A DNA stretch of 64,000 bases, from the NCBI GenBank assembly GCA_964106645.2, contig OZ067052.1. One strand, given 5' to 3'. The position numbers were made by a program, and so were the translations under genes. Shown in pieces: positions 1 to 61,722 of the stretch (position 1 is its first letter; every line of letters begins with the position of its first letter). Below the pieces are notes generated by a model. It did no database searches and was not told the origin of the DNA. It saw nothing but the letters and a program-made list of their open reading frames with translations. This stretch comes from Podarcis pityusensis. Lineage: Eukaryota.

Positions 1-35
1 AAACTTAACCACGGTGTCCGGGAAGTGTGATGCAG
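1..35 (+). CDS. Exon 1 (5'-partial), Cys-repeat
   Basis: [11 protein letters not shown](G); donor gtgagg, phase 1; continues as GWFC in exon 2. Confidence 0.8.
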
Positions 36-5011: not shown

Positions 5012-5050
<39 letters not shown>

Positions 5051-10702: not shown

Positions 10703-10733
<31 letters not shown>

Positions 10734-28700: not shown

Positions 28701-29847
28701 TTCTTAGGTCTTGTTACCCCAAGTGGCCCTTGCTTGCCCGGGTATTACTGCACCCTGAAAGCACAAGTACCAAACCCTGTTCACGATGAAAGTGGAGACA
28801 TGTGCCCCGCAGGGCATTTCTGCCCCTTGGGTAGCAGCAACCCAACACCATGCCCAAGTGGGACTTTTCTAACCCAGCCTGGGATGTTGTCCCTCAGTGC
28901 CTGCTTGCCCTGCCCTGGAGGAAGCTTCTGCCAAGGAGAAGGTTTGGCCAGCATTTCTGGTGAGTTCTATAATCACCTTCCAGAGCACGCAGTGTAATTT
29001 GGATGCTGAAACAAGAGAAAGCTCTATAAATATACCACCGCCACCCCGCAAGCTACATTGAGCTAAGTTTGTCTTGCACTAATCAAGCAGCCTCTTTTTT
29101 TTTCTGGCTTCTGACCCAGAAAATAATTATATCTGATATGCAATTTGCAAAGGAGTTTGGGGTGAGTGGGTGGATGATTTAAAGCAACTGACTTAGGTTA
29201 GAAATTACAGTTCATTTTCTGCACAATGGGACATGAGGAAAATCCTTCCTGAGAGTCTGGCAATCTGCAAATTAATAAAGAGAGTGAAGGCTCTGAGCAC
29301 ACACAGAGTTTCTCTCACCATGGACCTACTGGAAACTTACTTCCCCATCCCCATATACAGGTCTGGTTTTAGGCAGCAAGGCATCTGGGAGGTCAAAGAA
29401 AGTGACTTCCCGGTAGCCTTAGGACCCGGCACCTCTTCTGCTAGAAACAGAGCCCCACAGTTGCTTTCTGAGCACAATTCAAAGTGTTGGTGCTGACCAT
29501 TAAAGCCCTAAACTCCCTCAGTCCAGTATACCTGAAGGAGCATCTCCACCCCATCATTCTGCCTGGACACTGAGGTCCAGTGCTGAGGGCCTTCTGGCGG
29601 TTCCCTCGCTGCGAGAAGCCAAGTTACAGGGAACCAGACAGAGGGCCTTCTTGGTAGTGGCATCCGCCCTGAGGAATGCCCTCCCACCAGATGTCAAAGA
29701 GAAAAACAACTTTTAGAAGACATCTGAAGGCAGCCCTGTTTAGGGAAGCTTTTAATGTTTAACAGACTATTGTGTTTTAATATTTTGTTGGAAGCCGCCC
29801 AGAGTGGCTGGGGAAACCCAGTCAGATGGGCAGGGTATAAATCATAA

Positions 29848-29882
<35 letters not shown>

Positions 29883-38051: not shown

Positions 38052-38096
<45 letters not shown>

Positions 38097-41000
38097 CACT
38101 ATTATACCACTTTAACAGTTACTGCTTCCCTCAAAGAATCCTAGGAAATATAGTTTAAGGGCACTGGGAATTGTAGCTCTGTGAGCAACCTCCTTATAAC
38201 TCCCAGCCCCCTGAGTGAACTACAGTTCCCAGAATTCTTTGGGGACAGCCAAGCCTAATCAATTGGTATCAGAGCATTAAAAATGTATGGTCTGGTTGGG
38301 ACCAGCTATTCAGTTTGAACACATGAAGGGGCAAACAGGAACAAAATGAGGAGATCCTTGATGGCGCTGTGCACACCAAACACATTCTCTAGACAATGTC
38401 TTCTTTTATTTTATTCTGAAAGAGGCTGCCTTATTCACAAATAGGATTTCTAATACTGTACAGGGATGGAAATCCTAGTCAATAAGGGTTCCATAATTTT
38501 ACACACAAATATGGCAGACTAAATGTGGTTGTGCATTGCCTGGCACATGCAGCAACCTTTGGAGAGGTGTGGCTTACAGTTCATGTTCCCACTTGCCCCT
38601 TTACAAGTTCATACTGAACACCAACAGAGGGCTCACCTTTCCCTCCTAAAGGCCATCTCCATCTTTAGTCATAGAAGACAGCAACCTAGTCCCAATGTTG
38701 AGCAAGTGCAAGCACTGAAACCCAGTGTTTAAGCTGAAAAGCAAAGTTTGGCAGCTGAATCAACTAAAGACACTAAAGGCTTAGCTCAAGGTGGGCAAAC
38801 TGTGGGGCCTCCAGCTGCTCCTGGCCTTCAACTCCCCTCATCTCTGGGGGATAGCTCAGTCCGAGCATGAGACTCTGAATCTCAGAGTCATGGATTTGAG
38901 CCCCATGTTGGGTAAAGATTTCCTGGAGAGCTGCTGCCAGACAGAGTGGACAATACTGAGCAAGATTTGCAAAGTCCAAAAATTCCTGCATAGCAGGGGG
39001 TTGGACTAGATGACCATCATGGTCCCTTCCAATTCTACAATTCTATTATTCTGCAAACATTTGGAGGGCCACAGGTAGCCTTGCCTGATTAGCCAATTGG
39101 AACTGTTTTGAATTGGCGTGGGCATATTTTAATCAGTGAAGCTGCCTCTTGGGAAATCTTGTTCAGTTTGGGTTTTGATATATAACTTTAATAGAAGCAA
39201 AAATAAATTAAATAAAATTGCATTTTCTTCTACCACATGTAGGCTTTTGTTTATTAAATAGTTGATAGCCTTATCATCTGATATCTCAGAAGTTGTCTCT
39301 TTATTGAGCTGATGATGATATGCAAATGTATTTAAAAATAATTGGCTAGCTAATTCAGTCAATCAGTTAATAGATGTGTCATTCATCAGCTAAAACTTTT
39401 TTCCATTAGAGATAGCAGAAAGCCCACTAACTTTCTAGCCACGTAACGTGAGCCGAAATGACAGCTGCACTTTCATCCTTTCAAAGCTAAAATCTTTAAA
39501 GTAACTTGTATTCTTGGCTTGAACCTCTTGGTTTGATAGAGAAAATCAAACTCTCAAATCACAGGCAAAGCAGACCTGGAAGATCTTCACACAGTACCTT
39601 TTGTATTTTAAAGTTTTAGGCTATGTACACATTACCACTTATTCAGGCTCCAGTGCATTCCCACAACCATCTCATAGGATGGCTGTGCTCTGCAGTTGTT
39701 GCTGACATCTATCTGTCTTGGGAGACATTGGAAGAGTGCACCTTCAGGGATAATTCTCTGTTGGAGAATTACAGCGCCTGCTGTGGTGCCTTATATAAGG
39801 CAGCAACAGTGTAACACAGCTTCCTATGTTCCTCATTCTCCAGATTAAACTGATCTCTGCCAGCTTTTGTGTCCTGTAGGAGGTTCCTCTCCAGACTGCT
39901 GCGTCCCATGCTATCCAGGATTCTTCTGTGCTGGAGTGGGTTTAAGTTCACCTACTGGACCATGTGCTGCTGGTTTCTACTGCCCGGCAAACTTCAGCTC
40001 ATTCAGCCCAACAGCATTTCTGTGCCCTGAGGTCTGGAACATGTGCTCTGTCATTTGCTATCACAATTTATGTGAACCTGATTATCATTGGGTTGCTTTG
40101 TGGGAGGAAACCCTTAGTCTCTCCAGGTGTTGTGTTGGAATGAAATTCCCCCAGACAGCATGTCTAATGGTCAGGGATGGTGACAGCTCAAAGGCCACCA
40201 GTTCCCCAACCCAGCCTTAATACAACTCCTGGGCAGAGCATTGGATTCGACAAAGGAGGTTTGGTAGCTTGGGGTATTCTCCATGGAAGCCAATGTGAAG
40301 ATTGTTGCTTCTTGATACAGAACCAGTCTGGAATGTTCTGAATAGAAAAATGAAATCAGAAAAGTGAGCCATGGGATGTTTCTCCCCCACCCAGCCACAG
40401 ATGCTGTAATTAGATTTGTGTGTAAAAAAAGAAAGAAAAAGTGTTGGCAAGCCTGTTGTCCTCTGGATGGTTTTGGATTCCAACTCCCAGCATCCTCAGT
40501 CAGAATGGCCAATGGGGAGGGACAGTGGGAGTTGTAGTCTATCAACATCTGTAGAGCCACAGGTCCCCCACACCTGGTGAAAATAAATAATAGAAACTAG
40601 TGTTGGGTGAGACTGGGAGAGATGCCCAGAGGCATGCAGTGGGACAGGACAGATGAGCATCCTGGGCGTTGCCACTCTGTGGGGGAGGGGTCTGATTTGG
40701 TGGTCTGTTGCAAGGGTTTAAACCAGAAGTAGCCAACATGGTGCCCTCCAGATGTTCTGGATTAGAGCTTGAATATTCCCTGAATATGCCCATGCCGGCT
40801 GCAGCCTTTCCCTGTGCTCAACCTAGGGCTGGGGCACCATTGTAGAACACCTTACCTGCATGCAGAAAGTCCCAGGTTCAAGCACTGGTGTCTCCAGGTA
40901 GGGCTGAGAGAGACCCTGGCCTGAAAACCTGGAGTGCTGCTGCCAGCCAGTGTAGACAATACTGCATAAGGTGGCCAATGGTCTGATTCAGCTTACCGTG

Positions 41001-44000
41001 TTTTTACAATGTTTATTGGATTCATTTATTATGTTGTTTACAATGTTTATCCAACAATTATTGGCTGGGGGAAATTCTTGTCTGCTGCCAGACAGTGCAG
41101 GCAATGCTGAGGTAAATGGACTTGATTCGGTATTGATCAGCTTCCTATGGTCTTATATCTTAAGAAAAGGGTCATAGTTCAGTGGCAGAGCATCTGCTTT
41201 GCATGAGGGTAGTCCCTGGTTCAACCCAAGGCATCTCCAGGTAGGGTTGGGAATGTCCCCTGCCTGAAACCCTGGAGGGCGGCTGCCAGTCAGTGTAGGC
41301 ATTATGGAGCTAGATGGACCAATGGTTTGGCTTAGCAGAAGACAGCTTGTGTATTTGTGTGTCAGCAGTTAGTTTATTATTTTGTCTCAATTCCCCCCCC
41401 CCCCTCTCTCTCTCTCTGGTTTCCAGGGGCACTTCTGCCGGTCTGGGGCTGCCTATCCAGCCCCTTGCCTCATTGGTGAATACCAACCAAACCGGGGCTC
41501 AGAACACTGCCTCCCCTGCCAAGCAGGCTTCTACTGCCATGAGGCTGCCACAGGGAAGCCAAGACGCTGTCCACCACATTCATATTGTCTTGAAGGTACA
41601 AATAGCAGCACACTAACCAAAGGGCCACAAGCTTTAACTGATTGATGTCACTGACCCATCACCTAAAGTTTCATTCACAAACTCTGAATGCCAGTTGCTA
41701 AGAATCTCAATTGGGGAGAGTTCTGTTGTGTTCAGGTCCTTCTTACGGGCTTCCCATAGACATCTGGCCAGCCACTGTAAGAACAGAATGCTGGACTAGA
41801 TGGGCCTTTGATGTAATCCGGCAGAGCTCTTCTTAAGTTGTTGCATACTTCACTGATCTGTGTTTTTTATATGCCCCCTTTCCTTAGGTACTTTGTTTCC
41901 TTATCCATGTCCCGACGGCACTTTTACTCCTGTGGATATGTCTGGCCTTCAGGAGGAGAGAGGATGTCTTCCCTGTCCTGTGGGTCACTTCTGCAGGTAG
42001 TGGTGAATCCTTTCCACTGCCTCAGCAAATTCCAGTGTGCCATATTGTGCTGCTTTGCTTCTTTCCTCTTTCTTGTTGTTTAGCTTCATTTCATTTTACT
42101 TAATGCATTTGTTTTTATCCTGCCTTTCTTTGCACCCACAAAACAGTCCATCAAAACAGCTATAAAGCCAGGGATGTAAATAAGGTCAAGCATCAGTGAC
42201 ACAATCAGTAAAGGCAAGTGCAGGTAGGAAGAGCAAACAGTCTCTCGTAGATCTTTGGGGGGCATATTTACTGAGACCTTTTGTTGGTGTTATGGAAAGG
42301 GCCAGAGGGCATGTTGGCAACTCCGGTTTTATACTGTAAACTGCTCTGTGAGTTAATTTTGAAAAGTGGCATTGAAAAGGTATAGTTTTAATGAATAATG
42401 CCTCTTTGCCATCTAAATAAATTCCTACCACTTTCTCTGCACTAGGAGAGGACGAGTGGAGGGGAGATGTGCTGCTGGATTCTTTTGCCAAGAAGGGAGC
42501 TCAGATGCCACCCCACAGGGCCATAACTTCACCTGGAGCCCCCTGGCAGACTGTCTCTGGGGTCAGGTGTGTGCAGGACCCTGCCCAGCAGGTAACTAAG
42601 CAGTCTGCCAAGAAGCAAGCATACATTCTTGAAAATTCAGTCCTGCCAGAACACAATGAGAAATGGGGATTTAAAAATCACCAGCTCTGGAGTTTTGATG
42701 CTGGTGTTTATGGATCCAGTCCTAAGCATGTTTACTCAGAAGTAAGCACCACTGGACTCCTTTGGGCTTACTCCCTTCTGAGTGTGCGGTAGGATTTCAG
42801 GCTAAATGTAATTTCATCTTATTTTGGCTTGCACAAAAATAATGTGATATTGGCATCCAGGAATTTAAAATATAGATCCATCCCTGTTTTTTGGTGTGTG
42901 TGTCTGAATATTTGGAGAAATTCACACAAAAGTGTTGATGAAACTTCTTGAGGTTATAAAAAAACGATCAAAAACTAATGTGGAATGTGAAGAACCAAAC
43001 TTAAGAGTGGAAAAAGGAGGAACTGAAATTGATGGCTCTCTTGACCCTAATCTTTACCACAAGGCATTAAACTGTGGGGTGTTTCCTACCTATCACCCAG
43101 GATTCTACTGCCCAGAAGGCTCAGAGGCACCCATTCCTTGTCCAGATGACACTATTGGCTCTGCCCCAGGTGCAAGACAAAGAGAAAACTGCCTCCCCTG
43201 CCCGCCAGGCCGCTGGTGTAAAGCAGGTCAGAATTTATTCCTGGAACCCCCTTCCCAAAACACCTGTGTGAGGCATCCCCTCCCTCCCCCTCTCCTTTCA
43301 GATCTCATGCACACCCAACCAGGGACAACAAACTTGCCTGCCTTTGTGTGTCATTGGATTCCAACTCACATCATTGGCTGTGCTGGCTGAGTCTATTGTG
43401 AGTTGTACTCTGATGACATCTGTAGTCTGCAGGTCCCCCATCCCTACCCTAAGCACTGCAAGTCTATCCCTTTGAACACCTTCATACCTTCTCTCCCCCC
43501 CCCTCTCTTCAGGGGATCCAGTAGCCCACCCATGTCCTTATGGGTATGACTGCCACGCAATGAATCACACCACCCCCGGTGGACCCCGGGCCCTCCCGCA
43601 GTGCCCCAGGCAGGCTTTCCGAACAGAAATGGGGACTGAGAACCCTATTGATTGCCAGCCCTGCTCATCAGACCATCTGTGTGCGGCCACTGGTAAGCCC
43701 CCAACTTGAGGCCCAGCTCTAAACTCAGTCTGCAAAATTCCTGTTCAGCTCAAGCATGATGGAGCAGATTCCCCATCCAGGAGGTGGTTGAAATTTCAGG
43801 TTAAATGACATAAAAGCAGAAATGTTAACAGCAGGAACCTGCAGGAACTTTATTGTTGTTGTTGTTTTATTTAACGCATTTGTACTCTGCTCTTCAGCCA
43901 AAAAAGTTCCCAGAGTGACTTACATGCAATCTGTTAAAACATGAGATAGCTTAGTCAGGAGAGCATGAGACTTATTTTCAGGGTCGTGGGTTCAATCCCT

Positions 44001-47000
44001 GTGTTGGCCAAAAGTTTCCTGCATTGCAGGAGGTTGGACTAGATGGCCCTTGTGGGCTCTTCTAACATTATGATTCCATTACAGTACCTGCCCACAGGCT
44101 TACAATCTTAAAAGTAAAATAAACAACACATAACACACAAGGGGAAGAAGACAGGGAGAGTAGAGGAGGAAATCAAACTCAAGAGCCAATTCTGAAATAA
44201 TTGTTCTTATAACGACCAACTGGCACAGTCCAGGTTCAATCCTTGCCACCTCTATTTAGAAAGGATCAGCTAAGTAGGTGATTCTGTAGGAATTCTGCAC
44301 TGGAGAGCTCCTGCCAGTCTGAGTAGACTGTGCTAAGTAGATAAATAGTCTGCCTTGGTATAAGGCAGTTTCCTATGTTTTCCCTGCAGTTTTTGAGACC
44401 TGGGCCTCGAGAACTGTTAAGCTTGCCCCACAAGCAAACCAGGTTTTTTGAGCAGGGGTGTTAATAGTGAGGTTCTCTCTTCCTGCCCCCTTCCACCTTA
44501 AATTATTTTCCTGTCTTTCATCCAACAGGAGCTGCTACTTTTAGAGACTATCCCTGTGCTCCTGGCCACTGGTGCCCAGGAAGAAGAGAGGCTTTCCTTT
44601 GCCCACCTGGCACCTTTAGGACCCAGCCTGGTGCTACATCTTTGGAGGACTGTAACACCTGCCCTTCTGGGTTTTACTGCCCAGACCCAGCAAAGTCGGG
44701 GGTACCAAACATCCAGGGCATACCTTGCGAACCAGGCTATGAATGCCCACCAGGTGAGATGTGATCATGCATCAACTCTTGAACATCATGGCGCTGACAA
44801 TATGGGTTTCAGTAACTAGTTGGGCATTCTCCCCGTGATACTTTCTGGGTGTTTTGTACTTGCGAAGACCCAGGACATGTAGGCTGAAGCAATACTCTTG
44901 TGTACATGCCATACATTTAAAGCACATAGCTTCCTCCAAAGAATTCTGGGATCTGAAGTTTGTTGAGGGTTGCTGGGAATTGTCGTTCTGTGAGGAGTAA
45001 ACTCAACCCCTCCTCCATGGGAACTCTGGGAGTTGTAGTTCAACGAGGGAACTGGCCATGGTTAAAGCCAATGGATACTTCTTTAAATGCATAGCGCAAG
45101 TGGGACATCTATTGCATTTCCTTTCCTATAGGTTCCCCTAGTCCTCAGATATGCCGGCCTGGCTCTTACTGCGGACCCAGCACGGGGGTTCCTCCCCTGT
45201 GTCCAGTCGGGTATTACTGTCCAGAAGGGTCATCCACATATAACATTCCGGGGCAGCTGTGAGTATATTTCACAGGAGGCAAAGACTCCACACCTCTGGA
45301 AAATTCATGCTTTAAAACCAAACGTATCGTTCTGGGGTTTGTGACCCCCCCTACCCACCCAAAACTTTGTGTATTTCATAACTACTGTAAAGCTGCTTCA
45401 GAGTTGCAAAATCCCACACATGTAATTTGGGTGTCCCATTCAGCATAGCCTTCCTAGGGGGGACCATCTCAGTATGGCTAACAATGTGACCCTGTGCTTG
45501 TTTACTCTGAAATAAGCTTCCCTGTCTTTACTGGACCTTTCTTCAAGGTATATAGGGTTGCAGCATCACCCCCCAAGCTTTATTTAACAGGAGAAGGGGT
45601 GTGTTGTTGTTGTTTTTAAAAACGTACAGTGGTACCTTGGGTTACATACGCTTCAGGTTACATACGCTTCAGGTTACAGACTCCGCTAACCCAGAAATAG
45701 TACCTTGGGTTAAGAACTTTGCTTCAGGTTGAGAACAGAAATCGTGCTCCGGCGGCGTGGCAGCAGCAGGAGGCACCATTAGCTAAAGTGGTGCTTCTGG
45801 TTAAGAACAGTTTCAGGTTAATAACGGACCTCCGGAATGAATTAAGTACTTAACCCAAGGTACCACTGTAATAGAAAGAGGCTTGCTTCACACCCCTGTT
45901 GACATTTTTACTCAAATGTGAGCCACCCTTTCCACGCATGTCTGCCTCTGTTCTCCTCTGAAAATAGCAGGGAAGAACTATATGCCAGTATACCACTTTA
46001 CTCCTGTGATTTTTCCGGGTTAAGGGGTCTGCAAATTGATTTTTTTCTGGAATCAGATAACACAGAAATGAGTACAAAACATGGACTATTTTCCATTACC
46101 TTGAATGAGTGAGTGAAAGAATAAACCCATCGGGGGATACTCTCCATCTGCTGCAGAAATGTGAACTATTCACAGGAAGTCCTATTTGCTCTCTGACCAT
46201 CCTCAGCCCTGCTTCTATTTCTCAGGTGTGTCTATCCCCACTACTGCCCTCTTGGCAGTGCTCATCCACTCCTGTGCCAATCTGGTTACACAGCCCTGAA
46301 CACGACAGGCCTGAGAGACTCCTTTGAGAAGAGCTGCAGGGCATGCGCTGCTGGAACCTATGGTGGCAACCTGGACACCATTCCACCCTGCCAGCCCTGC
46401 CCGCCGGGATTCAGCTGCCCTGAAGGTGATTGTTCCACATGACACCACAGAGAACAGGGAGATGGTCATGGTAGAGAAATTGGTTTCAAGGTTTGCTGGG
46501 GGAGGACACAAGAAGAAAGCATCCTTTGAGCATCTCTTTAAGAAATGCCACATTTAAAATCTGAGCCAGAAGCCAAGGAACATTGGGTTGCATCAGAGTA
46601 GACCCACTGAAATGAATGAACCTCCATTAGTCACCTCCATTAACTTCAGCGGGTCTGTAGGTCAAGCATTGGAGACAACCTATCATTTTTATACCACTGG
46701 TTTGTCTAGGCTGGTGCTGTGTACAGAGTGAGAAATTCCCGTTCTTCCTCTTCCCCCCAGGTACTGCAAGTTACCTCCAGCATCCTTGCCCCCAGGGGTA
46801 TTATTGCCCAGACCTGACCTCTTCCCCCAAGCCGTGTCCTCCTGGTACTTACGGGAACAGCAGCCTAGCCAAGCGGCTGGAGGAATGCCACCCCTGCCCT
46901 GCTGGCTCTTTCAATCACCTCCCAGCTCAAACCGGGTGTTTTCCTTGCGGCAGTTCATCAACATCCAATCCAGGTGAGCCCACCTGTTCCCTCACTTAGT

Positions 47001-50000
47001 TCCTTTCATTAGCATCATTTGGAGCTGCTTGCACAAGGGCCTCGTTTCTGCAGTGTGCAAACATCTGCAGATAAGGAGTGAGTGCATGTGCTGCCATGCT
47101 TTTTCGATGAGTAGTCAACCCCCCTCTGAACCTCAACTTGCCTCTTTAAGGTGCTACCAGCTGTACCTGCCATGGTCTGAATCGGGCTTTCCAGGAGTCT
47201 GATGGCTCTTGCATTTGCCAGGTGGGATACCTTTACTTTGATGAGAGAGGGAAGAAAACACCTGACAGCAACAGCAACCAGGACTGCCAGCCCCAGGTGA
47301 TGCACCATGGCTGTTGATGCATGTGTGATGCTTCCTAGCAGCATCTTTTATAAACATTGTGCCAGTCTGACTTGCCCCTTTTCTTTCCCTTCTGCAGGTG
47401 GAGGAACGCTGCGCTCCTTGGGAGGTCCGCTTAGCATCCACCCGCAAATGTGTGTCCCCTGAGCACTATAACTGCTCTCTGGTCTGTGGTCCAGCAAGTG
47501 GTGAGCTCCACGCTGAACTTGGCATGTAAGCACCATCTTTTCAGGAAAGCATTACTGGGTACCAGAGAGACAAGTTCTTCTCCTTAGCAATCGGGAGTGT
47601 AAATCTCAACCCAACTCTTATGCATTTTTACCATTGCTCGGATTTTTCAAATGGGATTAAGTATGATGTGACAGATGTCAGCATCTGGCCTCCTCCCCCT
47701 TGCCAGCAGCCTCTGCATAGAAGGCAAAACAGAAATAAAAAATGGGAGTCACTTCACACATTGTTTCATTTCCACATTTAGGTTATACATTTACAAATAA
47801 CTTCCCCCGAAAGTACATCTGGAAGCAGGTGCATTTAGACAGATTTATTGTTTTGATTTTTTCAAATTAAATTTATATCCCTCCCTCCCTTCCTTCCTTC
47901 CTTCCTTCCTTCCTTCCTTCCTTCTTTCCAAAGGAGCTGAGGGAGGAAGATGTGTCCCTTAAAGAGCCAGAATTGGCTGCAGATCCCCACACCGTGGCAG
48001 AACCTATGCTTTCTGCCCTAATATGCATGGAATGGACTTCATCTCAGTCTCATAAACTTCATGCCCAGATTCCATGTCTGTTTGCTTGCACATGTTACCA
48101 GATCATTCTTGCAGCCTCACCATGTCAACATCCACCACTGGTACCCCCTCCAGTGTCTGGTCCAAGAGGACAGGGCTTCTCCTGTCTGCGTTCCTTTCAT
48201 CAGGCTTGGTGGCACTTGGAATTCTCATAAGAAGAGGCTTGATGGAGTTTCCCTACTCCCTCACTGATGTCACTGGTAATTCTGGCTATCCAAACTTTCC
48301 CTGGAAGCCATCTTGGCCCAGACCCCGAACGAATTTCTCTAATCCCCTTTCAAAGCCACCCATATAAGTGGCCATAATTACACCTTGTATTAGCAAATCC
48401 CATAGCTTAGCTATACATTATGTGGATAAGTTCTCTGAATCTCCCACCATTCAGCCTCATTGGACGACCCCATTAGCTACTAGTGGAGGAGAATTTCTCT
48501 CTGCTCAACAACATTAATGATTTTTATATACCTCTATAATTATCCTTTTTTTCTAAACTAAAAAGCCCAAACATCATATCCTTTCCTTATAGTGGAGTTG
48601 TTCCAGTCCCTGGATTGTTTTGGAGGCCAATGTGAGGACCTGCATCATTTCTGGATTTTTAAGTTACTTTCAAACTGTTTTTGATATTGTGTTTTAATTG
48701 CAATTTGCTCTGGGACCTTGGGATGAAAGGTGGGTTATTGTTGTCACTGTTGTCACTCCGAGTCCCACCATGAACCAGGTCAGGGGAAGCCAATGGACAG
48801 AGCTTGAGAACCCTTTGTTGGGGAACCTGTGGTCATCCAGGGGTTGTTGAGACTCCAATTCCCAGCAGTACCAGCCAGCATGTTCAATGGCCAACCATCA
48901 ATGGTCAACTCCAATAACATCTCAAGGGTACCAGGTTCCCTAACTCTGCCTTGCTGCCTACATAATTCTTCACCTGTGGCCCCTGCATCTCACAACACAG
49001 AGATCTACATATTTCTTAGTTCTGGCACCAGCAGACACAGCTGACTCCCAGCTTATATGAAAGTAAGCCTTTCAAGCTTATTTCCCTGGAATGGAGATTC
49101 AGACAGAAGCAGCACTGTTTCTCTCTGCTTCCCAGGTGCCACTGTGAGCAGTACATTTCCGCTGAAGAGCTATGTGATCGGCTATGCCTCTTGAGAGCTC
49201 CACAGATTTCCCTGAGATTTGGTCCAGAGAGGGAGCTGCTTCTGAGTGTTGATGGGACTCAAGAAAGAGTGAGTGGAGAATGCCAGGGCTGAAGGGGAAT
49301 GGCTCTCTCTGCATGCAGATGGATGTTTAAGGCCACATTCACACCACACAATTAAACCAGGATCATACCACTTTAAGCTGTCACGGCTTCCCCCAAAGAA
49401 TTCTGGAAGCTGTTGTTTGTTAAAGGTGCTGAGAGTTGTTAGGAGACCCCAATTTCCTGTCACAGAACTACAATTCCTTCTGAAGAGGGATTTGTTGTTA
49501 AACTCTGGGAATGGTTTAAAGTAGTATGGTGCTGTTTTAAATTCATGCTTTGAGTCTGACCTAAGGCTTGGAGTTTCTCTAGGATTACTCTGCTGGGGAC
49601 CATATAGGGAACTCAGAGAATTCCAACAAATAACTTAAGTTAAATAGCAGACTGTAAGACAAACAACACCGTATTGCTTTTCAGGAGCTACCAAATACCT
49701 TGGGACCTGATGAACATGTGCAGAAAAGCCGGCAGGTGCATTTGGCTCTCTTTGGCCCCAGTGGAGTTTTTGGCTTCCTGCTTTCCAGCCCGGACATGCT
49801 GGACACTTTCCTGGCAGGTAAGATGTCTGGCTTGCCACAGCTTAGTGACAGGAGTGCATTGAATTATACATCTGCAGTCTAGGTCTTCCATAAGCACTAT
49901 GCCTGTAATGCCTGATAATAATAAGTGTGAGATGGACCCTTTGCAGGCAACCCACAGACTGTGCAACTCCCCCCCCCCCACTAAAGTCACTTTGGATCTA

Positions 50001-53000
50001 TGATCCAGCTGGTTTACACTTGTTCCTCATCACAACAGTGTTGTATGGTTACGTGCATGTGTGAATGGTCAATCCCAGATCAAACATCACTGAGAGAACC
50101 TTCATATATTTTGAAAAGGGGAAAAGGGATACATTGCAATGGACCCCAATGGCCTGTGAGTCAGAAATGAAGGGAATATAGGCATGTTTTACTGGACATT
50201 GATGGTTTCCTCATCCACAACATCTCTGTAAGAACTTGTGGTCCATTCCTCCCACCTACCCACAGAATAAGCATCTTTCCTTAACTCTTGACTTAGCTCC
50301 TCCCCTTTCCATCAACTTTTCCAATCCAGGAGATTCAGAGCTGCCTCCCCCGCGGCAGAGACATCGGCGGGAGGGGGATGCTGCACAATCTCAACATACT
50401 CTGCTCTTACCCACAATTCCAAACCCTGTTGCATGTCTGGCTGTTGGGGATGCCATCCTTTTCCAGCTCAGTATCAATCCCTATGGTGAGTATATGCAAT
50501 TGCTTCCTGTGATGTAGGGTGAGATCCAATGCAGCATAAGTGGGCTCATAGAACTGGGCTGCTGCTTCTCTTCACTCCACCTCCTCACCCACAAATCTGT
50601 CCCAGATAAGGCTGGGGGTGGGGAGAGGAGGGCTGGGGCGGGAACAAGGTGCAAGAGCACTCTCCCCTTCTGGGGCTTTCAGCAACTGATAATTGCTGCC
50701 TCTACACTGGAGGTAGAAAATAGGCATCTATAGCTATACCCTCTATGAATTTGTCAGCTGTGGTCTTCGGAAGGAAAACTAGATTTGGCTTTGCAATTGC
50801 TACTCTTCACATTTTGTTTCTGCCAGAAAGAGGGGACCTGAATTGATCCTGAGCTCAGTTCTCTTAGGAAGGTTGCACATCTGATCAAAATGCAGATCCA
50901 CAGAGGGCTTGCCATTCAAGAGATAAAGATGTTTGTTTATGCATCCTTAGCCTGGCTTTGTATCCACTCATGAGTGCTTGGATGGTGTTGACTCTGTTCC
51001 CATTCCTTACCAGACCGCCTCGCTAGTCACTACCCTGTCTATCAAAAGCAGCACCTCTATAACAGCAACCCCCACTGGGATTTTGGTGCATTCAGAAGGC
51101 TGGACCACCTCATTCGAGAAACTCAACTCAACATCTCCAGGTATCTTCTGATGCTACCAAAGGAATGCCTTCCCTTCTACCAAGATCCTCAGATGAGGCC
51201 CTGTTCATAGCCCCTTTCTCCTCTGAAGTTAGACCAATGCAGAAGAGAAGCAGAGCCTTCTCCTTGTAAAATTCTCTCCCCAGAGATGTCTGACAGGCTA
51301 GCCAACTCTTTGATCTTTAAGGGGGGAGAGAACTTAAGAAAAATAATAATAGACAGATATGCATGTGAATATTAGCTGTTATTTCTTACTTTTTGTGATA
51401 TTAAAAAAACCCACATTAGTCACCCCAAGTACATTGCCATACAATGTTGTGGGTCACACATTCCAAGAATCCAGTGAATCTTCTGCCAGCGCATTGCCAG
51501 CTGAGGGGGTTGAATTCGGCAGCAAATAAACTGAAGAAAATGATCCTTCCCCTTCTGTTGATGTGGTTGTCATGTTAACCAGTGATGGTGTTGGTCGTTT
51601 GTGGTCTTCCGTTTTGAAGGGAGTCAGGGAAAGTCATTCACTGATTGGATTGTTAATTTAATTGGCTGTGTTAATTGCTTTAAATCTATAGGCTAAAGAA
51701 ATATTGTTCGTATTCCTTAAGCTCCAGAGTGATTCTCAGTCTGCTTTTCTTTATCTATAGCTGAGAACTTCAGGCATTACACAAGATTATCAGTGAGAAC
51801 GCTAGCTTACAGCTCTTCTCCACTGGTTGGTAGGTAGACAGATAGATGTATGTACATACTCACAGATACATGTGGGGTAGCATTCAGTCACACAGTCCAC
51901 ACCAGCAGTCTGAAGCTGTACAGTCCAGTGACAGTTTTGCCATGTTTGTAGAAATCAGGGCTTAATTTTGTTGACATCTCTAATTTACACATGTAAAATA
52001 CTGCATGGATGACATATACTTCATACGTCTTCATCTCTCCAATATGTTCTTTGGAGCTGGCTCACGAGTGATCTCTGATTTTACATCTCTCTTGCCTCCA
52101 TTAACTTTACAGAATCTTTTCTGATGCACTTGACAACCCTCAGAGAATCAATAAGACCTCCACTCAAGGAACTGATAAGAGGCATGAAATGCCTTTTGCA
52201 AGGAAGAAAGCTTGAGGAACAATGTTTCCCATCTTCTTCCTAGGGGAGCTCTGTCATTTTGGAGAATAATCTAGCAATAATCAAAGAAATAATTTGTTGC
52301 AGTCAGTAGACCAGAATCTCCATGGCCTCAGCAACCTTGAGATCATGCTGTGAATAAAACTGAAATTGCTTGAAGGTTTTTCCTCCCCCTTGATACCTTT
52401 AGTTTTGGGGTAATATTAAATATTGACGGAATGCAGTAGAGCAAAAGGGCTTGTTTAAGACAGCACACCTCTCCCTTCCTCAGATTCTCCCACGTGTTCC
52501 TTGAGCCTGGGACGTACGTCTTCCGGGATAATGCCATTGAAGATCGGATGCTGATCGTGGTGGTGAATGAGGAGACTATGAGCTGCAACCCCCTTGCAGC
52601 TCCCTTCCAGCCCTCATCTCCATTCCAGCTTGCTCGGCAGGGGGTCCTGAAGCGCCAGGTGCTCAATGTCGCCCCAGACTGGGCAGCTATTGCAGGTACT
52701 ATGACAATGACTCTGTAGTTTGTCTTTAAAGGAGGGGGGGAACTATGGTGCCCAGAATTCCCTGGGGAAAGTCGTGTGCTTTAAATGTGTGTCAGATGTG
52801 CTTTAAGTCTATAGTGTGGCTCTTGCAAAGTGCTGTGTATGTGCTCCTTAAACTTTTGTGGACTTTGCCCTTTTCAGTCAAAGCAACACGACTAGGCTGC
52901 AATTAGCCAGTTGTCCATCCCATATTGGCCTCTCCGCTCACCTTTATAATATCAGTTGCCCCCCTGGCATATTTTTCCAGAGGTAAGGAGAGTTGACTTC

Positions 53001-56000
53001 TTGCAACATGCATCATGAGAAAGCAGACGCCCTGTGGGAAGGTGACTTGAGGTGACTGATTCATATTAATTATCTGTAGCAGTTAATCTGCTTATACAAG
53101 CAAAGGAACAAGACAGAGTCTCTAGACTTCTGGTCTCCCATCCTCTGCTGCAGCAACTCTCCTCCTCCTGTGTAAGCAATTCTTTGCTGCATAGCAATAG
53201 CAGGTGGAGCTAGCAATGAGGAGCAGCCCAGGTATGCCACACCTTGCCTTAAGAATGCAAGTAATAGGTGGCTTTGCTTTATTCAGTTTGTTACATAAGA
53301 GCAGCAAACATCATGGTTTCCAGCACGCGCTGGTGTCAAAATAAACACACCGTGGAAAAATTGCTTTGGTCTGGATTGCAAAGTAGAGCTAGGCATAGTG
53401 TGATCTCAAGAAGTATTCTCTGTCCAAGAGTTCTAAGGATGACTTGTTTTTCCTTTCTGTGCCTCAAATATGCCAGACACTTAAGCATTGTTTCCAATGC
53501 TCTCGCAACTGAACCACATCCATATTTCTGCATGGAAGGAAAGGCCTTAGTTTGTGGGTCACCTTGTCGCAGCAGACAAAGTGGAGTGAAAGACCCAGAG
53601 TGGAGAGAGACCGTGTGCCTCTGCAGATCTTACTCAACTTATAACTCCCATCTAGCCATAGACAGATCTGTCCCACTCCATAAGAACTGAAGCCAGAGGC
53701 AGTAATTCTTCTGAATACTACTTGCTGGAAACCACAGGAGGGCAGAGTGCTCTTGTGTTCGGGTCATGCCTTTGCAGGTTTCCCACAGGCACCTGGATTA
53801 TTTAATTATTTATTAGATTTATTACATAACACCCTTCATCATAAGATCTCAGGGCAGCTCATGGAATAAAATACGGGATGAAAAGAAGTAAATAATTGAA
53901 ACAAAACAGCAAAGCAATGGATTACCATTATGGGAACAAAATGCAGGAGTAGATGATCTAATCTAGCAGGTTCTTCTTATGAGAGAAGAGAACCTTTGTC
54001 TCTTCTGGTGTCGCTGGGCTGTAATTCCTATACAGTGGTACCTCGGGTTACAGACGCTTCAGGTTACATACTCCGCTAACCCAGAAATAGTACCTTGGGT
54101 TAAGAACTTTGCTTCAGGATGAGAACAGAAATTGTGCGGCGGCGGCACAGTGGCAGCGGGAGGCCACATTAGCTAAAGTGGTGCTTCAGGTTAAGAACAG
54201 TTTCACGTTAAGAACAGACCTCCAGAATGAATTAAGTTCTTAACCAGAGGTACCACTATACAGTATACACCAAATACAATGCACTTTGCAATGCAAATGT
54301 CAGAACACGTTACGCAATGCCTATTAAAAATTAATTCAAATAAATCCACAGCGTCCAAAAGGACCTGGAGGGACACAGGTTCCCCATTTCTGCTGCAAAC
54401 TCTTCCTCTTCAGCCTTAGCCCTGCTGCCTCTGAAGGATGGTCAGTTCAGCCAAAGAAGCTGTGTGGACTAGCACGAGGCACCTGAACCATAGAGAAATG
54501 CCTTCTGGGAGGCTGGGGGGGGGGGAGTTAAGCAGATGGTGGAAGCATGAACAGTGAACCATTAATGGATGCCACCTGGATAAAGTGGAAGAGAACTCAA
54601 GAACTTACCTTAGACCACCATCAGGCCTCTGAGAAGAAATTGTAGTGACCCATTTCCCTTCGTTTCATCACCACTGTGTTCTCCTGCCTTTTCAGCTGTG
54701 CTTTTCATCCTGGGGTTCCTCACTGTGGTGTTGACAGCCTTAGTTGTTCTCCTGAGGCATCCCAGCTCTGCTCCAAGCCCAATGAAGAGCTGGAAGCCGC
54801 GGTGGAGGAGCTTGGGAGAGCCACACATCCCCCCGGAGTATGTGCTCATTAAAGAGAGGTGAGTGACGGAAGCCTAATCACCGATGCCACCTTGGGCATC
54901 AATTCTAGCGTCTCTCAGATTCTAATTTTTTTCAGTCTTCAGTTCTTCACATTTCCACATCAGTTTGTGATTCCCCCCCATGACCACTCCCCACATTAAA
55001 TGGGGGGCGCCCTTTGCCTGGTCATGTGCAGCCGCAGCCCCCCAGACCCTATGCGGCACCATTAGCACAGGCTTGGCTTTGCCTTCCCCAGGTGGGATAC
55101 CTGGAGGTCTCCGTCTACCTCAGCCAGTTGCCCAATCCCGCCTGGGGAGGTATTGCCAAGGTGATCAGGCCAGATAGGGGGGAGGGACCACCCTGCCCAC
55201 ACAATAGGGGGAGGATCTTATCTGGGAATCATCAGTTGGCTCCAGAGCTTCTTCAGAAAGGATGTTGCTGGACTTCCTTGCTCCAAAGGTAGGCCTGGGG
55301 TCTTTGGCTCCACCCCCCCCCCCGGCCACAGGGCCTCAAAGGGATGGTGGGGAGCACTAGATCTCGGGATCCCCTTTTAAAGGGGATCCCCTCCCTTGGG
55401 CAGACCAGGGTGGTGGGTAGCAGCGTGGGGAGCTCTCTGGCTGCGCCCCTGTGCCTCTGGTGGCGGCGTGGGCCATGGGGGGGCAGCACCGCTTCGCGCG
55501 GCCTGCCCCTTCCCCCCGTCAGGCCTGGCAGCCCCGGGGTGTGGCGGGTGGCGTCGGACAGGCTTTTTTCACTAATACGTGCAGCTTTATGCATACTTTG
55601 GTGTTTCCGTGCGCTGATCTGGTTTGCCAGAAGCGGCTTAGTGATGCTGGCCACATGACCCGGAAGCTGTACACCGGCTCCCTTGGCCAATAAAGTGAGA
55701 TGAGCGCCGCAACCCCAGAGTTGGCCACGAATGGACCTAATGGTCAGGGGTCCCTTTACCTTTACCTTTATGCATACTTTACCCCAATCCATACCTTTTT
55801 GTACACATTGCTTGACTTTAAAAGTGCACTGCGAAATTCAGGAAAAGTGCAAATTTCATAGGACAGCTGTATGCATTGGTTCATGCATTGTTCTGAAAAG
55901 TGTGAATTAGGTAGGTTCACCTATCAAAGCAAACTGAATTGAATTTCTCCTCCCATCCTGGCTCAGGGCAACAAACAGAAATTTGGTTCTTAAAACAAAC

Positions 56001-59000
56001 AGGGGCTGCTTGTGCGTTTTTAAAAAAGAAAATTAAAAATCATAAACTGACGTGTGAATGTGAATAAATGAACATAAGAAGAACCTGTTAGGTCAGGCAA
56101 ATGGCCCACCTTAGTCCAGCATCTTGGTCTTACAGTGGGCAGCCAGATACCCATGGGAAATTTTCAAGGAAGACCCAATCACAAGAGGACTACCCCATCC
56201 TGCTTTTTCCAGAAAGTGGTATTCAGAAGCATTACTGCATGGGAGAAAATTCTCTTTGGGGATTCAATACAGAGGCTCAGACCAGATTCCCAATTAGTCA
56301 GACCCTTATATTCAGTCGTGTATTACAGGACAGAGTCCAAAAGAGTCGGTGAGAGCATTCCATTCGCACACACCCTATTTGAGAAATATACATAATCTTG
56401 GCTGTTTGTTCAACCACATTTTGCCACCTTCTGCCACCCCAACACTTCACCCAACTATAGTTCTTAAAAACACTTATTCAACCGATGGTGTTGTTGTTGT
56501 TTTTTGCTGTATATGCAGAGCCCTCCTTGCATCTTATCTGGGATTGTTTTCCACTCTAGTGGACAGTTAGGTTCCTTCAAAATGGATTACTGTCAGTTTT
56601 GTGGCCAGGCTGCACACTTGCATAGCGGCAATGGCCTTCCTGGTCATGGGTTTTGCAGAATTTCTACCTCAGCTGCCTCTAACTGTGGAGGCAAAGCATA
56701 GCCATACAGTAGTACCTCAGGTTACATACGCTTCAGGTTACAGACTCTGCTAACCCAGAAATAGTACCTCGGGTTAAGAACTTTGCTTCAGGATGAGAAC
56801 AGAAATCGTGCTTCGGCGGCACGGCAGCAGCAGGAGGCCCCATTAGCTAAAGTGGTGCTTCAGGTTAAGAACAGTTTCAGGTTAAGAACAGAACTCTGGA
56901 ACGAATTAAGTACTTAACCTGAGGTACCACTGTAATGGCTAGTAGCCATGGATAGCCTTCTCCTCTATGAGTGAGGGGGGAAATAAGAAACTGAGAGTAA
57001 TCCCAATTAACAGATCTGCCCATCCGTAGTCTCAACACGAGAGACAGCCTTTTTAAAAGAGGCACTTTCTCAAGCTCTTGTGTGCATTTCTCCCCCTGTT
57101 CTTGCAGCATCCAGTTCTATGAAGCTCTTGGCTCCCAGGGATCTGGAGAAGAACCTGATGCAGGAGAGGGAACTTTCCCAGGGTTAGGTAAGACTTTGTT
57201 TTGGAAGATTAGGCTCGGTGCTCTCACAAACAGGCAGGTGAATGTTGCATATTCCCCCCTCCCACACAGACACCCAAATGCTGGCAAGCGATTTTGATCA
57301 CCAGTCCTGACATGGGAAATCTCTGACCCAAAACGAGTTTGCCAAAGCAACCACAAAACACTGAAGCAAGGCATGTGCTGTAATTGAAGCTATAATCCAT
57401 CATGGGATGCTTTGGGGATGCCACGCCTCTCAGAGAAGAGAAAATACTGTTCATTTGCACATGCAAGGGCCATTTTAAAACTGAACATCAGTCGCTTGAT
57501 AGCAATGGCACATAAGCTCTGGTGGCTGGTTTCCTGGACTTTTTCAGAATTTGTGGGGTTATTTGATGTGGGTATGGATTAGCACTCCCCACTGGTTCCC
57601 TCTAAACCAACCTACTCCAACCTGGAGCCCTCAAGTTGCTTTGTATTACAACACCCATCATCCCCAGACCAAATTAAACAATTGCTATGCATGATGGGAG
57701 TTGTAGTCTGAAACATTTGCAGGGCACAGGTTTGGCAAAGGTATATTGATCACGCTTGCCTGTTCTCCGGATAACTCACCACGGCGCAGTAACTTTTGTT
57801 TTTGTCAGATGAGAATGTAAGTCTGTGAGATCTCCAAGGCGGAAGCGTTTACTGATAATAGTGCAGGTGGAGCTATGTCCAGCAGATGGCAGTGTTTACA
57901 CTCTTTGGGGGTAGTTCCGCTACAAAAAAATCACTGAAAAAAATCAAGGCAGGGCATTTCAATTGCCACTGTCACCCTGACAGTTCGTTTACTAAATTCT
58001 CTCAGTTAAGTTGTAGACCTAGGATGTTTGATGTGTACACCTGAAAATTAAAAGTGGAGGCAAAATTGTGCTTGCAAATACATGTGTCATGCACATGAAC
58101 TCATTAGGGACCTAGGATCAGGCTTCCAAACAAGTCTGATGTATGAAAAGGCCACCTTGGGAACTTTTGTAATTCACCTAAGAACTACAAATGCCCAAGT
58201 GGTGCCCTCTGTGAATTTGCAGATCTCAGCCAAATAATAATTAAAAGTACGCATTGAAGGATTAGTGATAATGGCCATTGCTGCTTCTGAAATTTGTGTG
58301 CTCCTAGTTCACACAATACCACTCACACTGGTAGACCATTCTTATGAGCATTGTGAACCTATAAAGAGGATTTAAATGAGCACCCAAATATACATATATT
58401 GCACCCTGAAAGGCTTGAATGTCATGCGCACATCATACCAGACTAATAATAGCTGATAATTAACACTTTGGAAGTATCTAGGGCACCTCACTAGGGACGC
58501 TGTGAAAACTGTCAATATTTGCTTCCAACCTTGTGGTTTTCTGGGGACTGATTTCAGGTTTTGACCCACTTAGCCAAAGTTCTGCAGGATCCTCCCCTGT
58601 ATTCCTGAAGTTCAGGCTGTGAATGGCATTGGTTGTGTAGCTACCCAGGCACAAACGAGCAGCATCAAATGTTTAGCAGGGAAAACCTTAAAAGGAGGGG
58701 GTAAACGGAAACCCTAAAACAGCTCTACGGGCATTAAGCTTGTTCCCACTTCTATTCATTCTCATTCAATGATGTGTCACACACTCTCTTTTTCACATGG
58801 CCTTCCCCAACTTGGTGCCTTTCAGATGGTTTTGTACATGCAAAACCATATAGGCCAATGCTTGCTCAGACTGATGGGAGTTGTAGTCAAGCAACATCTG
58901 GAGGACACCAGTTTGGGAAAGGATGTCTGAACACATTTGTGTGCAGTCCCCAACTTCTAGGGTAGATCTTCAAAGGATTCAAAAAGGTCTTCACCTGGGG

Positions 59001-61673
59001 CTGGAATGGAACAAGATTCAGCATCAGGTGAGACAGGCTGGCAAGATCATTTCCCAAGGTCAAGATAAAGTGATCAATGGCTGCTCTGCTTCCACTGCCA
59101 GAGGCAGGAGGCCTCTAAATACCACTGGCTGGGAACCATAAGTGGGAATTCCGGTGGTGTTTGCACCCAGATCCTACTTCTTGTCTTCCTATAGGCATCT
59201 GGGTAGGAGCTGTAAGAACAGGAAGCTGGACTCAATGGGCCTTTGTACAGATCCAACTGAGTTTTCCCTATGTTCTTATCAGGATGGTTTTTCATGGAGT
59301 CTATCCAGTTGTTGTTGTTGTTTCACCACAGAAATCCTGTGCAGTAGTTTAGACTGAGAGATAAGGGGGGGGGGGGGAGAGAGAGATTGTTCCAGTATAT
59401 CCAGCAAGCTATGTGGCTGAGCATGGATTTGAACCTGGATTCTTCTGTCCCAACCATTCATCCCATGCCATTTTTGAAGACGATAAGAAGGGAAAGTTAC
59501 CAGAAGAGCCTCTCTATTTCTGAGCTTCTTTTTCTCCCTTCCCACCACGAAGAAATAAATCAATATAAGGACCGCAAAGCTTTTTTTCCTTTATACCTAA
59601 GGTCTTAGTCAATTAAATGGATAAGCTGCCTTTGTTTCAGGCGACCAGTTTGCAACAAAAGACCTGGAAGATTTCAGCGTCCGCACTTTGTATGACAAGC
59701 TGGAGGACCAGAACCTTCACTTGGCATCGCAGCTAGCAAAACACCGGGCAGATGTCCTGGCCTTCTACCGAGGCATCAGCCAGAAGATCCAGAGTCTTTT
59801 GGTCAGTGCTGTGAGGAGGGAAGCATATGTGTAGAAATATATTTGCTCATTTGCTTTTGACCCCACTTTATTTCCAACGAACTGGAGCACTGCACTCACC
59901 TGAATGGGTTACTAATAGGTATAATGCACCTGCCCATCTATGGACCAGATTAGCTAGATCATGACTCTTGACCAATCACATGGTGGTGGCCATTCTAGAT
60001 GTAGGTACCAAAACTCCACTGGGGCAGAATATAGCAATAAATTTCACACTTCTGTGCAACAAAGAGGTGTTGTCCCTGAGTCTGTCCGCTCAGGCAAGGT
60101 CCTTCAACATTGGCAGGTTTTAGATCCCTGGCCCTCATTAAATGTTTCTGCCCTAGCATACATTAATGCACACCTATGAGCGCCATTGATGTGGCTAAAT
60201 TACAATAAGCTTGAAGCTGAAAGGAGGCGACCCCCTGATGGCTGCATGGGGAATTAGGGGACTGTCAGGCCTGGGGTCTGGCTTGAAACAGGCCACCATG
60301 AAATCTGGGCCCTGGCATGTGGCAATGGGCTTGTGGGCCAGGAACAGGCGGCATAGTCGTGAATGGGCTGGCAGGGGAAAACAGCAGACTGGATTACTGA
60401 GGTGAGGCAGGGTAGGTCTGGTGTGAGGCTTGGTGAGACATACCAAGGGAAAGTCTTGGTTAAGGAGATGAGTGATTCAGATTTCCAGAGCAGCTCACTA
60501 GGAAATGTTTGTAGCAGGGCTGGCGAACCTTTTTCAATCCAAAGGTAGCAGTCTCTTCCAGGCCACTTTCAGTGGCTGGCAGAATCAGAGATAAAGTGGG
60601 TGGAGCAACAAATGAAGCAGGGCCCCTGAGGGGTGTGGCCTATGGAGAGAGGGTGTGGCTGGCTGGGAAGGGGTGTGGTGTGGGGAGAGTCCCAAGGACC
60701 AGATAGAGAGGAGTGGAGGGCCACTTTTGCCAAGCACCCCTGGCAAAAAAAAAAAAAGACTGAAGTTCTTTATCCCTGGTTTACAGGGCCCAGTGCCATT
60801 CTCTCTGCCTCAGACCCTAGAAAGCCCCTGTCACTCAAAAGTTTGATGGGCAATAGTCTGACCTTTCCATAAGGCACCTTCCTATTTTCCTAAGCAATGT
60901 AATGTTCCCCAGTGAAGGCAAAAGCAATTTGACGAGGTCATAAAATCTGAGACATCAGTAAAGCATTAAGGCTGTTGATCTCTGTTTGTAGGATCTGGTA
61001 CAGACACTGGATATGGATGCATTGAAGGGCATGGAAAGGTCCACAGTTGCCAGGGATAGAGCCCAGGTCACCTTCAGTTCAGCCAAGGAGACCCAAGAAA
61101 GTGAGAGCTCCTCCATCAAGCTTTCTGGAGTCTTGCAAGCAATGGGCTACTCAGGTGAGAGAGCTGGGAAAACAGAACACTTCCCTGCATTTTTAAAAAA
61201 AGGGATTTTCTACAAGTGCCAGGCACCCATTAGAATTGACCAAAATGTGAAAGCAAATAATGGTGTGTTTTTCATTTTTAAAATTCTCCTTTGTACCTTT
61301 TAATGGTCTCTTTTCTTATGGATATTTCACTGTGACACTTGTGGTGACCCATGGAGCTTGCTTCTTTGCTCTGAATGTAGCTGTGTTCATGAGCAAATCT
61401 CCAAGAGGCATGAAAACAGCTGCTTACAGGCTGTTAAGGAAGCCTTATTAAGTGATTAATGCCTTGCTGAATTCTTTTAGGTTCTGAGTGGCAGGAGGCA
61501 ACAGAGTTAATGAAAGTCCTGGGGATTTTGCTGCGAAAAATCCATTTTGGGAAGGTGACGGCGAAGCCAGAAGGGGCACAGGGGCATAATGGGGCTGGTG
61601 GATCTGGCCTGGCTATCCAAGAGCAAGCTGGAACTCAGCAAAGATGCCCGGTAAGAATGAAGGTCTCCCTTTG

Positions 61674-61722
<49 letters not shown>

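Follow-up and report, generated by a model that had tools for sequence, protein, structure and literature searches.

The immunoreceptor tyrosine-based activation motif (ITAM) in its classical form reads D/E/N-xx-YxxL/I-x7-YxxL/I and has an intron in its first module, and the subunits that carry it have an acidic residue in the transmembrane (TM) helix and are highly conserved from pufferfish to mammals, as passages of PMC4536121 describe. In CD3epsilon, according to passages of PMC2661883, a PxxDY motif ends on the first ITAM tyrosine, which is also the start of a YxxI/L internalisation motif, and this shared tyrosine acts as a switch. A survey of the inhibitory counterpart, the ITIM, filtered its candidates by shuffling and by the predicted local distance difference test (pLDDT), as set out in parts of PMC11460946. 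Here we analyse a stretch of 64,000 nucleotides from the lizard Podarcis pityusensis (contig OZ067052.1; the window), in which a gene for a giant single-pass membrane protein acquires, across a splice junction, an ITAM-like pair of tyrosines whose first member also ends a PPxY motif. The original prediction saw in this pair a possible signalling ITAM, in which phosphorylation of the shared tyrosine could switch between SH2 signalling and ubiquitin-driven turnover. The pattern is real and correctly spliced, and lies in an annotated but unstudied protein; judged by its distribution among orthologues, the ITAM match is most likely incidental, part of a conserved cassette for trafficking or docking.

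Splicing and the two-tyrosine pattern

The proposed junction at 54858/57108 was confirmed both by sequence signals and by spliced contigs. A GT donor follows 54858 (AG/GTGAGT, cut at the slash) and a pyrimidine tract plus CAG forms the acceptor before 57108, while contigs of 4/4 runs skip from 54856 to 57106, which, with the cut moved by +2 to GT..AG, is exactly 54858/57108. Contigs of the same four runs likewise skip the next five introns. An alternative junction was rejected, as 54858/57108 is the only one among the joints listed for the run contigs, a list that stops above 181 weaker joints. The four runs, out of 11 listed, belong to one study, are presumably of RNA, none of those listed being recorded as such, and come from a related organism with a few exon differences; their contigs carry no tissue or expression-level information.

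Joining exons 52484-52695, 54696-54858, 57108-57187 and 59641-59801 gives an open frame of 205 amino acids that agrees with Podarcis muralis LOC114585457 (P0013) at every residue. As had been proposed, the spliced tail reads YVLI, six residues and YEAL (YxxI-x6-YxxL), with PPEY ending on the first tyrosine (Tyr1; the second is Tyr2) and 28 residues between the last residue of the single TM helix and Tyr1. The intron cuts a Ser codon, the third of the six-residue spacer. The exon numbers 49 and 50 are right as a window-relative count, since 55 exon segments were mapped, covering P0013 residues 1414-4325 with 2883 of 2945 aligned residues identical; the true numbering in the gene is higher. The features are as follows.

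2..62836, plus strand: middle part of the host gene, 55 exon segments, residues 1414-4325 of 4668 by match to P0013; runs off both window ends
50329..52660 (approximate limits), plus strand: exons 46-48, juxtamembrane extracellular beta-sandwich, weakly cupredoxin-like in the predicted model (Foldseek)
54696..54754, plus strand: main part of the single TM helix, which lacks charged residues and whose first part is encoded by the end of exon 48
54791..54838, plus strand: most constrained tail element by column changes, a basic/aromatic block of 11 residues through PPE
54830..54841, plus strand: PPxY motif (PPEY), Tyr1 codon at 54839-54841; PPxY in 52/61 non-mammal, non-teleost genera
54839..54850, plus strand: YVLI, first half of the ITAM-like pattern
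54859..57107, plus strand: GT-AG intron of 2249 nt inside the six-residue spacer (contigs, sequence)
57108..57187, plus strand: exon 50, 80 nt (contigs, spliced frame)
57118..57129, plus strand: YEAL, second half of the pattern and a YxxΦ, the best-kept tyrosine motif (56/61 genera)
59641..59801, plus strand: exon 51, start of a conserved predicted coiled coil (TLYDKL motif) common to protist homologues (contigs, model, alignment)

The junction and the motif matches hold good, as does the idea that the tyrosines are linear motifs in an accessible tail; the linker is predicted to be disordered (pLDDT about 40 in a model of the turtle orthologue P0080, built on a 70-sequence alignment). Unlike a short receptor tail, this one runs to 647 residues and includes both a coiled coil and a folded domain, and the motif sits near its start. 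Among 20,000 shuffles of this tail an ITAM match arose in 0.89%, and within the first 80 residues in 0.1-0.2%; PPxY arose in 2.2% and YxxΦ, whose consensus is Yxx[LIMVF], in 95%. An ITAM match is improbable in one tail, yet expected many times per proteome. Searching family proteins with the same expression listed 11 matches, one being the present site, and the ten others, in 627,604 residues, include several in extracellular repeats. Other labels for the segment were tried and rejected: a hemITAM at Tyr2 (the acidic triad of the consensus is missing before Tyr2), an ITIM at Tyr1 (Pro at -2, unlike the consensus) and an amphipathic-helix fold of the motif, which is not seen in the P0080 model.

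Conservation of the pattern and constraint on the tail

Genus counts take one predicted protein for each of 146 vertebrate genera, of which 81 are non-teleost and 61 are neither mammal nor teleost; gar is absent from the two smaller sets. Same-genus duplicates, unnamed entries and Cavia (anchor failed; without a strict match) were left out, as were rows with the site missing or apparently mis-spliced, namely Xenopus, Lerista, Eleutherodactylus, Ophiophagus, Naja, Coturnix, Engystomops, Bos, Cricetulus, Alexandromys, Scotinomys, Galemys, Sagmatias, Prionailurus and Scophthalmus. These exclusions favour the ITAM, because no mis-spliced row excluded by name has a strict match.

The strict ITAM is present in 34/146 genera: lizards 11/11, turtles and alligator 5/5, birds 11/17 and snakes 0/2 (sauropsids together 27/35), mammals 6/20, chondrichthyans 1/5 (the shark Chiloscyllium), amphibians 0/18, lungfish 0/1, teleosts 0/64 and other ray-fins 0/3. 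All 18 amphibians have Thr at +3, with Tyr1 kept in 15 and Tyr2 in 17. PPxY and ITAM occur together in 27/146 genera, 26 of them sauropsids, and in 0/20 mammals, where PPxY remains in 1/20 and YxxΦ at Tyr2 in 9/20; in the four sampled rodents, His stands in the place of Tyr1. Among the 61 genera, YxxΦ at Tyr2 is kept in 56, PPxY in 52, both tyrosines in 49 and the strict ITAM in 28, with Tyr1 present in 53 and Tyr2 in 57. On a species tree of the 81 genera entered by hand, the strict state must have changed at least 11 times if the root lacked it or 13 times if the root had it, and a single gain would imply 19 losses, six of them in sauropsids. In the alignment of orthologues, then, the spacing stood up, with no indel in 61/61 genera; the sequences themselves indicate that Tyr1, its +3 residue and Tyr2 have each been lost repeatedly and independently. 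The claim of an ITAM with a shared-tyrosine SH2/WW switch accordingly fails on conservation, a check that the original prediction had itself proposed.

The two halves do not decay together. Tyr2 is present in 26/28 of the 61 genera with a broken first half and in 31/33 with an intact one, and Tyr1 in 19/22 genera with a broken second half. In a ligand of tandem SH2 domains, decay of the first half should be followed by loss of the second, and the persistence of the second half argues against an ITAM.

In the sample, the two-tyrosine pattern is confined to jawed vertebrates, and none was found in the crinoid and Chromosphaera members. Deep homologues (P0113, P0116, P0119, P0126) carry KP[RK]YR..EP..[VI]Y and [DE]-x-L-x-x-R-G-x-G, with Leu or Phe in place of Tyr2. 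In placental mammals the whole cassette is more eroded than in other tetrapods, and no human protein is among the listed matches. It was also observed that the same spacer codon is the last point of agreement for several predicted orthologues (skink, frog, sturgeon, bird) and that teleost indels cluster there. Such alignments suggest that the intron position at 54858/57108 is common to vertebrates and that acceptor shifts broke the spacing in fish.

Rates of change place these motifs within the tail. Changes per column number 1.81 in the upstream block of 16 residues, 3.03 at the start of the coil, 6.57 in the ectodomain, 6.86 in the 14 ITAM-like columns and 13.96 in the rest of the linker, so the ITAM-like columns match the ectodomain in rate and change half as much as the remaining linker. 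The four key ITAM positions are more changeable than 35-64% of all 245 columns. By this comparison the segment is under real but moderate constraint, its key residues not being special. In 61/61 genera no change occurs at W, S, L, G and E, at the second Pro or at the spacer Ser. The block at 54791-54838 has 8/16 columns invariant in the 61 genera and is the most constrained element at the start of the tail; its counterpart in homologues from invertebrates and protists is KP[RK]YR.L, and it is not known to belong to a named motif. Tyr1 and Tyr2 are replaced mostly by Cys or His and by Phe once in 12 losses, whereas three other Tyr columns change to Phe. This rarity of Phe suggests use of the tyrosines in Tyr-specific motifs rather than in packing, with the caveat that single-base changes of a Tyr codon also lead most often to Cys and His.

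Readings of the juxtamembrane cassette

We favour the reading, which we hold to be about evenly balanced between right and wrong, that the exon junction forms part of a conserved juxtamembrane cassette for docking and sorting, predicted to be disordered, in which the tyrosines would act singly and the ITAM match would be incidental. Loss of the two halves independently across vertebrates makes single trafficking signals likelier than an immune-type switch. The endocytic YxxΦ and the PPxY, which the original prediction had named alongside the ITAM, are better kept (56/61 and 52/61) than the ITAM itself (28/61), and read as single-tyrosine motifs they appear to fit the pattern of retention better. 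We hypothesise that Tyr2-xx-Φ, by its consensus, binds the mu subunit of an adaptor protein (AP) complex, that PPxY at Tyr1, likewise by its consensus, binds a NEDD4-type WW domain, and that the basic/aromatic block of 11 residues may serve as an anchor, held by the inner leaflet or an old partner. Together these signals would set surface residence time, probably in testis or ciliated cells. An older linker skeleton may have had a Tyr after prolines and, ten residues on, a hydrophobic-acidic-x-Leu step; a second Tyr added in jawed vertebrates would then have completed the ITAM expression without selection for tandem-SH2 binding.

Several observations weigh against this. Of the 28 genera with a broken first half, 20 are amphibians and chondrosteans, that is, few independent events; the ten-residue spacing of the tyrosines is without an indel in 61/61 genera, and separate motifs need no fixed spacing; both tyrosines persist in 49/61, with lizards 11/11 and turtles and crocodilians 5/5 strict. 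PPE is intact in all 8 non-mammal genera that lack Tyr1, so the prolines would be held by something other than PPxY. Teleosts and most mammals have lost both tyrosine motifs and retained the gene, and all orthologues are gene predictions. Since YxxΦ turns up in 95% of shuffled tails, only its conservation counts.

The main rival, to which we give tentative weight, is that the 34-residue cassette works as a whole, binding some partner or the inner leaflet and perhaps folding as it binds; neither tyrosine would then be a standard motif, and ITAM, PPxY and YxxΦ would be by-products of pattern searching. This reading would account for seven residues being invariant in 61/61 genera when Tyr1 is kept in 53 and Tyr2 in 57, for PPE outliving all 8 Tyr1 losses with the length fixed without an indel, and for a skeleton that predates vertebrates; judging from the spacing, motif positions 1, 4, 8, 11 and 14 would share one helix face. 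The P0080 model, in contrast, has no structure there (pLDDT about 40), Phe rarely replaces Tyr at either site (1/12 losses), unlike at the packing tyrosines of the same protein, and the invariant Ser may reflect an exon-end AG.

We consider it improbable that sauropsids have a working ITAM of non-classical form, possibly inherited from the ancestor of jawed vertebrates, in which Src-family phosphorylation of both tyrosines would recruit Syk/ZAP70 and phosphorylated Tyr1 would displace a NEDD4 WW domain. This reading draws on the strict pattern in 27/35 sauropsid genera (with PPxY in 26), in Chiloscyllium and in 6/20 mammals, on its restriction to jawed vertebrates in the sample, and on a chance of 0.9% in this tail at a disordered site 28 residues from the membrane. 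In its full form, a giant surface protein from flagellate eukaryotes would have gained an independent ITAM in jawed vertebrates, with Tyr1 also in a NEDD4 PPxY. In lizards, turtles, crocodilians and many birds the protein would still act through this ITAM as a receptor coupled to Syk and able to switch from signalling to turnover, probably in non-immune cells (of the testis or ciliated), whereas amphibians, snakes, teleosts and most mammals would have lost the ITAM. This scenario is likewise a long shot. The pattern is strict in 34/146 genera only, with at least 11 state changes and without joint decay of the halves; D/E/N at -3 occurs in 0/146, the spacer has six residues and holds the intron, the TM helix is uncharged, and Val and Leu at +1 and +2 are unlike the polar residues usual in Syk ligands. 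Pfam ITAM gave no match on P0107 or P0080 at E up to 10, nor on P0002, P0004 or P0007 at E up to 0.1, short models being easily filtered out. Real ITAM subunits are, by contrast, highly conserved from pufferfish to mammals in the account of PMC4536121, as excerpted. The PxxDY of CD3epsilon offers a precedent for a shared-tyrosine switch (PMC2661883, in the passages on that motif), and the mouse orthologue Gm9195 stands in a natural killer T (NKT) cell signature (10.1101/2022.11.16.516757, a list entry). That listing is no help to the ITAM, because the sampled rodents have His at Tyr1 and it therefore involves no ITAM.

A drifting linker with the match as pure chance is very improbable and largely refuted, since the 14 columns change at 6.86 against 13.96 for the other linker with no indel in 61 genera, even if loss is complete in 64/64 teleost genera, decay has reached most mammals and the expression matches ten other sites among the 627,604 family residues.

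If the docking and sorting reading is true its meaning is modest: these would be the first candidate trafficking signals mapped in a family spanning protists to mammals, adjoined by a much more conserved unnamed motif. The case is a clean example of an ITAM expression that passes chance and disorder filters and fails a co-conservation test. Were the ITAM switch true, a giant receptor outside the immune system would have evolved an ITAM convergently, together with a WW/SH2 switch on a shared tyrosine.

The host protein and its relation to known systems

The host gene is identified by sequence as the lacertid orthologue of zebrafish si:ch211-286b4.4 and mouse Gm9195. The window product is 97.9% identical to Podarcis LOC114585457, which falls in one clade with shark-to-mammal orthologues, and the Cys repeats, beta-sandwich, PDW-TM segment, WKP block and TLYDKL coil are all present. 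The protein has about 4,700 residues, with a Cys-repeat ectodomain, one TM helix and the 647-residue tail; in P0013 the ectodomain is 10% Cys with 165 CPxG repeats behind a hydrophobic N-terminus, and the family repeats are of GCC2/GCC3 and Ephrin_rec_like (PF07699) type. The P0080 model shows a confident beta-sandwich, the TM helix, the low-confidence linker and a coiled coil, beyond which come a folded domain and more coils. Foldseek matched the beta-sandwich to plastocyanin-type proteins (E 0.04-0.1, prob 0.97-1.0), a weakly cupredoxin-like result. The folded domain of the tail (P0080 505-645; P0013 from about 4342, beyond the window end) resembles zincins of the Wss1/minigluzincin kind, with Z 8.6, root-mean-square deviation 3.0 and 106 aligned residues against Wss1, and with selecase and PprI on top in Foldseek (E 0.11-0.25). 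HExxH was found in 0/176 copies of this domain and HxxxH in 36; the predicted fold is thus likely a zincin-like domain without the catalytic Glu, a pseudo-protease in the tail of a surface protein.

A profile search found 893 proteins at E up to 0.001, including a crinoid protein, one of Intoshia, two of Chromosphaera and one of Fabomonas. In a quick tree the vertebrate orthologues form one clade (SH-aLRT support 99), and the fish paralogue si:dkey-103g5.4 groups with Fabomonas and the second Chromosphaera protein (97). Two ancient paralogue types (P0164, P0158 and P0133 versus P0013 and P0117) differ in their linkers, type B having YSSKGS and FWDYE, and fish and Chromosphaera each have both types. 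The two types might form a heterodimer via TM helix and coil. ESM Atlas gave two clusters under 0.9, one being the paralogue si:dkey-103g5.4. A PDB sequence search with an alignment gave 5 matches (best E 0.13) of coiled-coil or TM noise, a VIA search of the 843-residue model found coiled coils only, and a complex prediction of P0080 197-320 (linker and coil) with 505-645 (zincin-like domain), in which the alignment was not used, scored 0.00 and speaks neither for nor against docking of the two parts. Literature on Gm9195, si:ch211-286b4.4 and related gene names gave gene-list mentions only, with none on function or motif: the zebrafish orthologue is higher in testis than ovary (10.1101/650218, in the portion concerned) and a family gene is listed in a hair-cell chromatin table (PMC12528612, table entry). 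With two ancient paralogues, a cupredoxin-like stalk, a coiled coil and a pseudo-zincin tail, the host protein may be the better lead.

Two kinds of repeat were observed in the introns. At 56705-56934 lies an element of 230 bp, likely a miniature inverted-repeat transposable element, whose terminal inverted repeats span 25 nt each at 88% complementarity and whose contig depth is very high. Two introns (about 55620-55770 and 63120-63280) carry mutually related copies of a high-copy repeat on the minus strand, which we take to be probably a lizard short interspersed element.

Set beside the classical ITAM subunits (CD3, TCRzeta, CD79a/b, FcRgamma, DAP12), the lizard pattern is alike in its two Yxx[L/I] modules, allowed spacing, division over two exons and membrane-near, predicted-disordered tail (by predicted topology). 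It differs in Pro at -3, a position with D/E/N in 0/146 genera, in a spacer of 6 rather than 7, in an exon boundary that falls in the spacer rather than in the first tyrosine module, in a TM helix that is uncharged and without the acidic residue of signalling subunits, in an ectodomain of 4,000 residues and a tail of 647, and in repeated independent loss. We do not place it in the classical ITAM family because of the -3 Pro, the spacer of six, the intron in the spacer, the uncharged TM helix and the labile motif; it could still work like an ITAM, and its shuffle and pLDDT values would satisfy the filters set out in parts of PMC11460946. With CD3epsilon it shares a proline motif that has the first ITAM tyrosine as its last residue, although CD3epsilon binds SH3 via PxxDY, in the passages noted, whereas the lizard motif is PPxY and overlaps the ITAM in 27/146 genera only. 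Beta-dystroglycan is alike in having PPxY in the tail of a single-pass protein with a large ectodomain, and its phosphorylation is reported to recruit SH2 proteins, by the title of a reference in PMC2661883. It is unlike in using single rather than tandem SH2 domains, and no sequence relation is expected. Apicomplexan CRMPs are multi-pass and have a different C-terminus than the host protein. The same CRMPs and other GCC2/GCC3 proteins, as they appear in a search listing, are alike in their Cys-rich GCC2/GCC3-type repeats on a very large surface protein.

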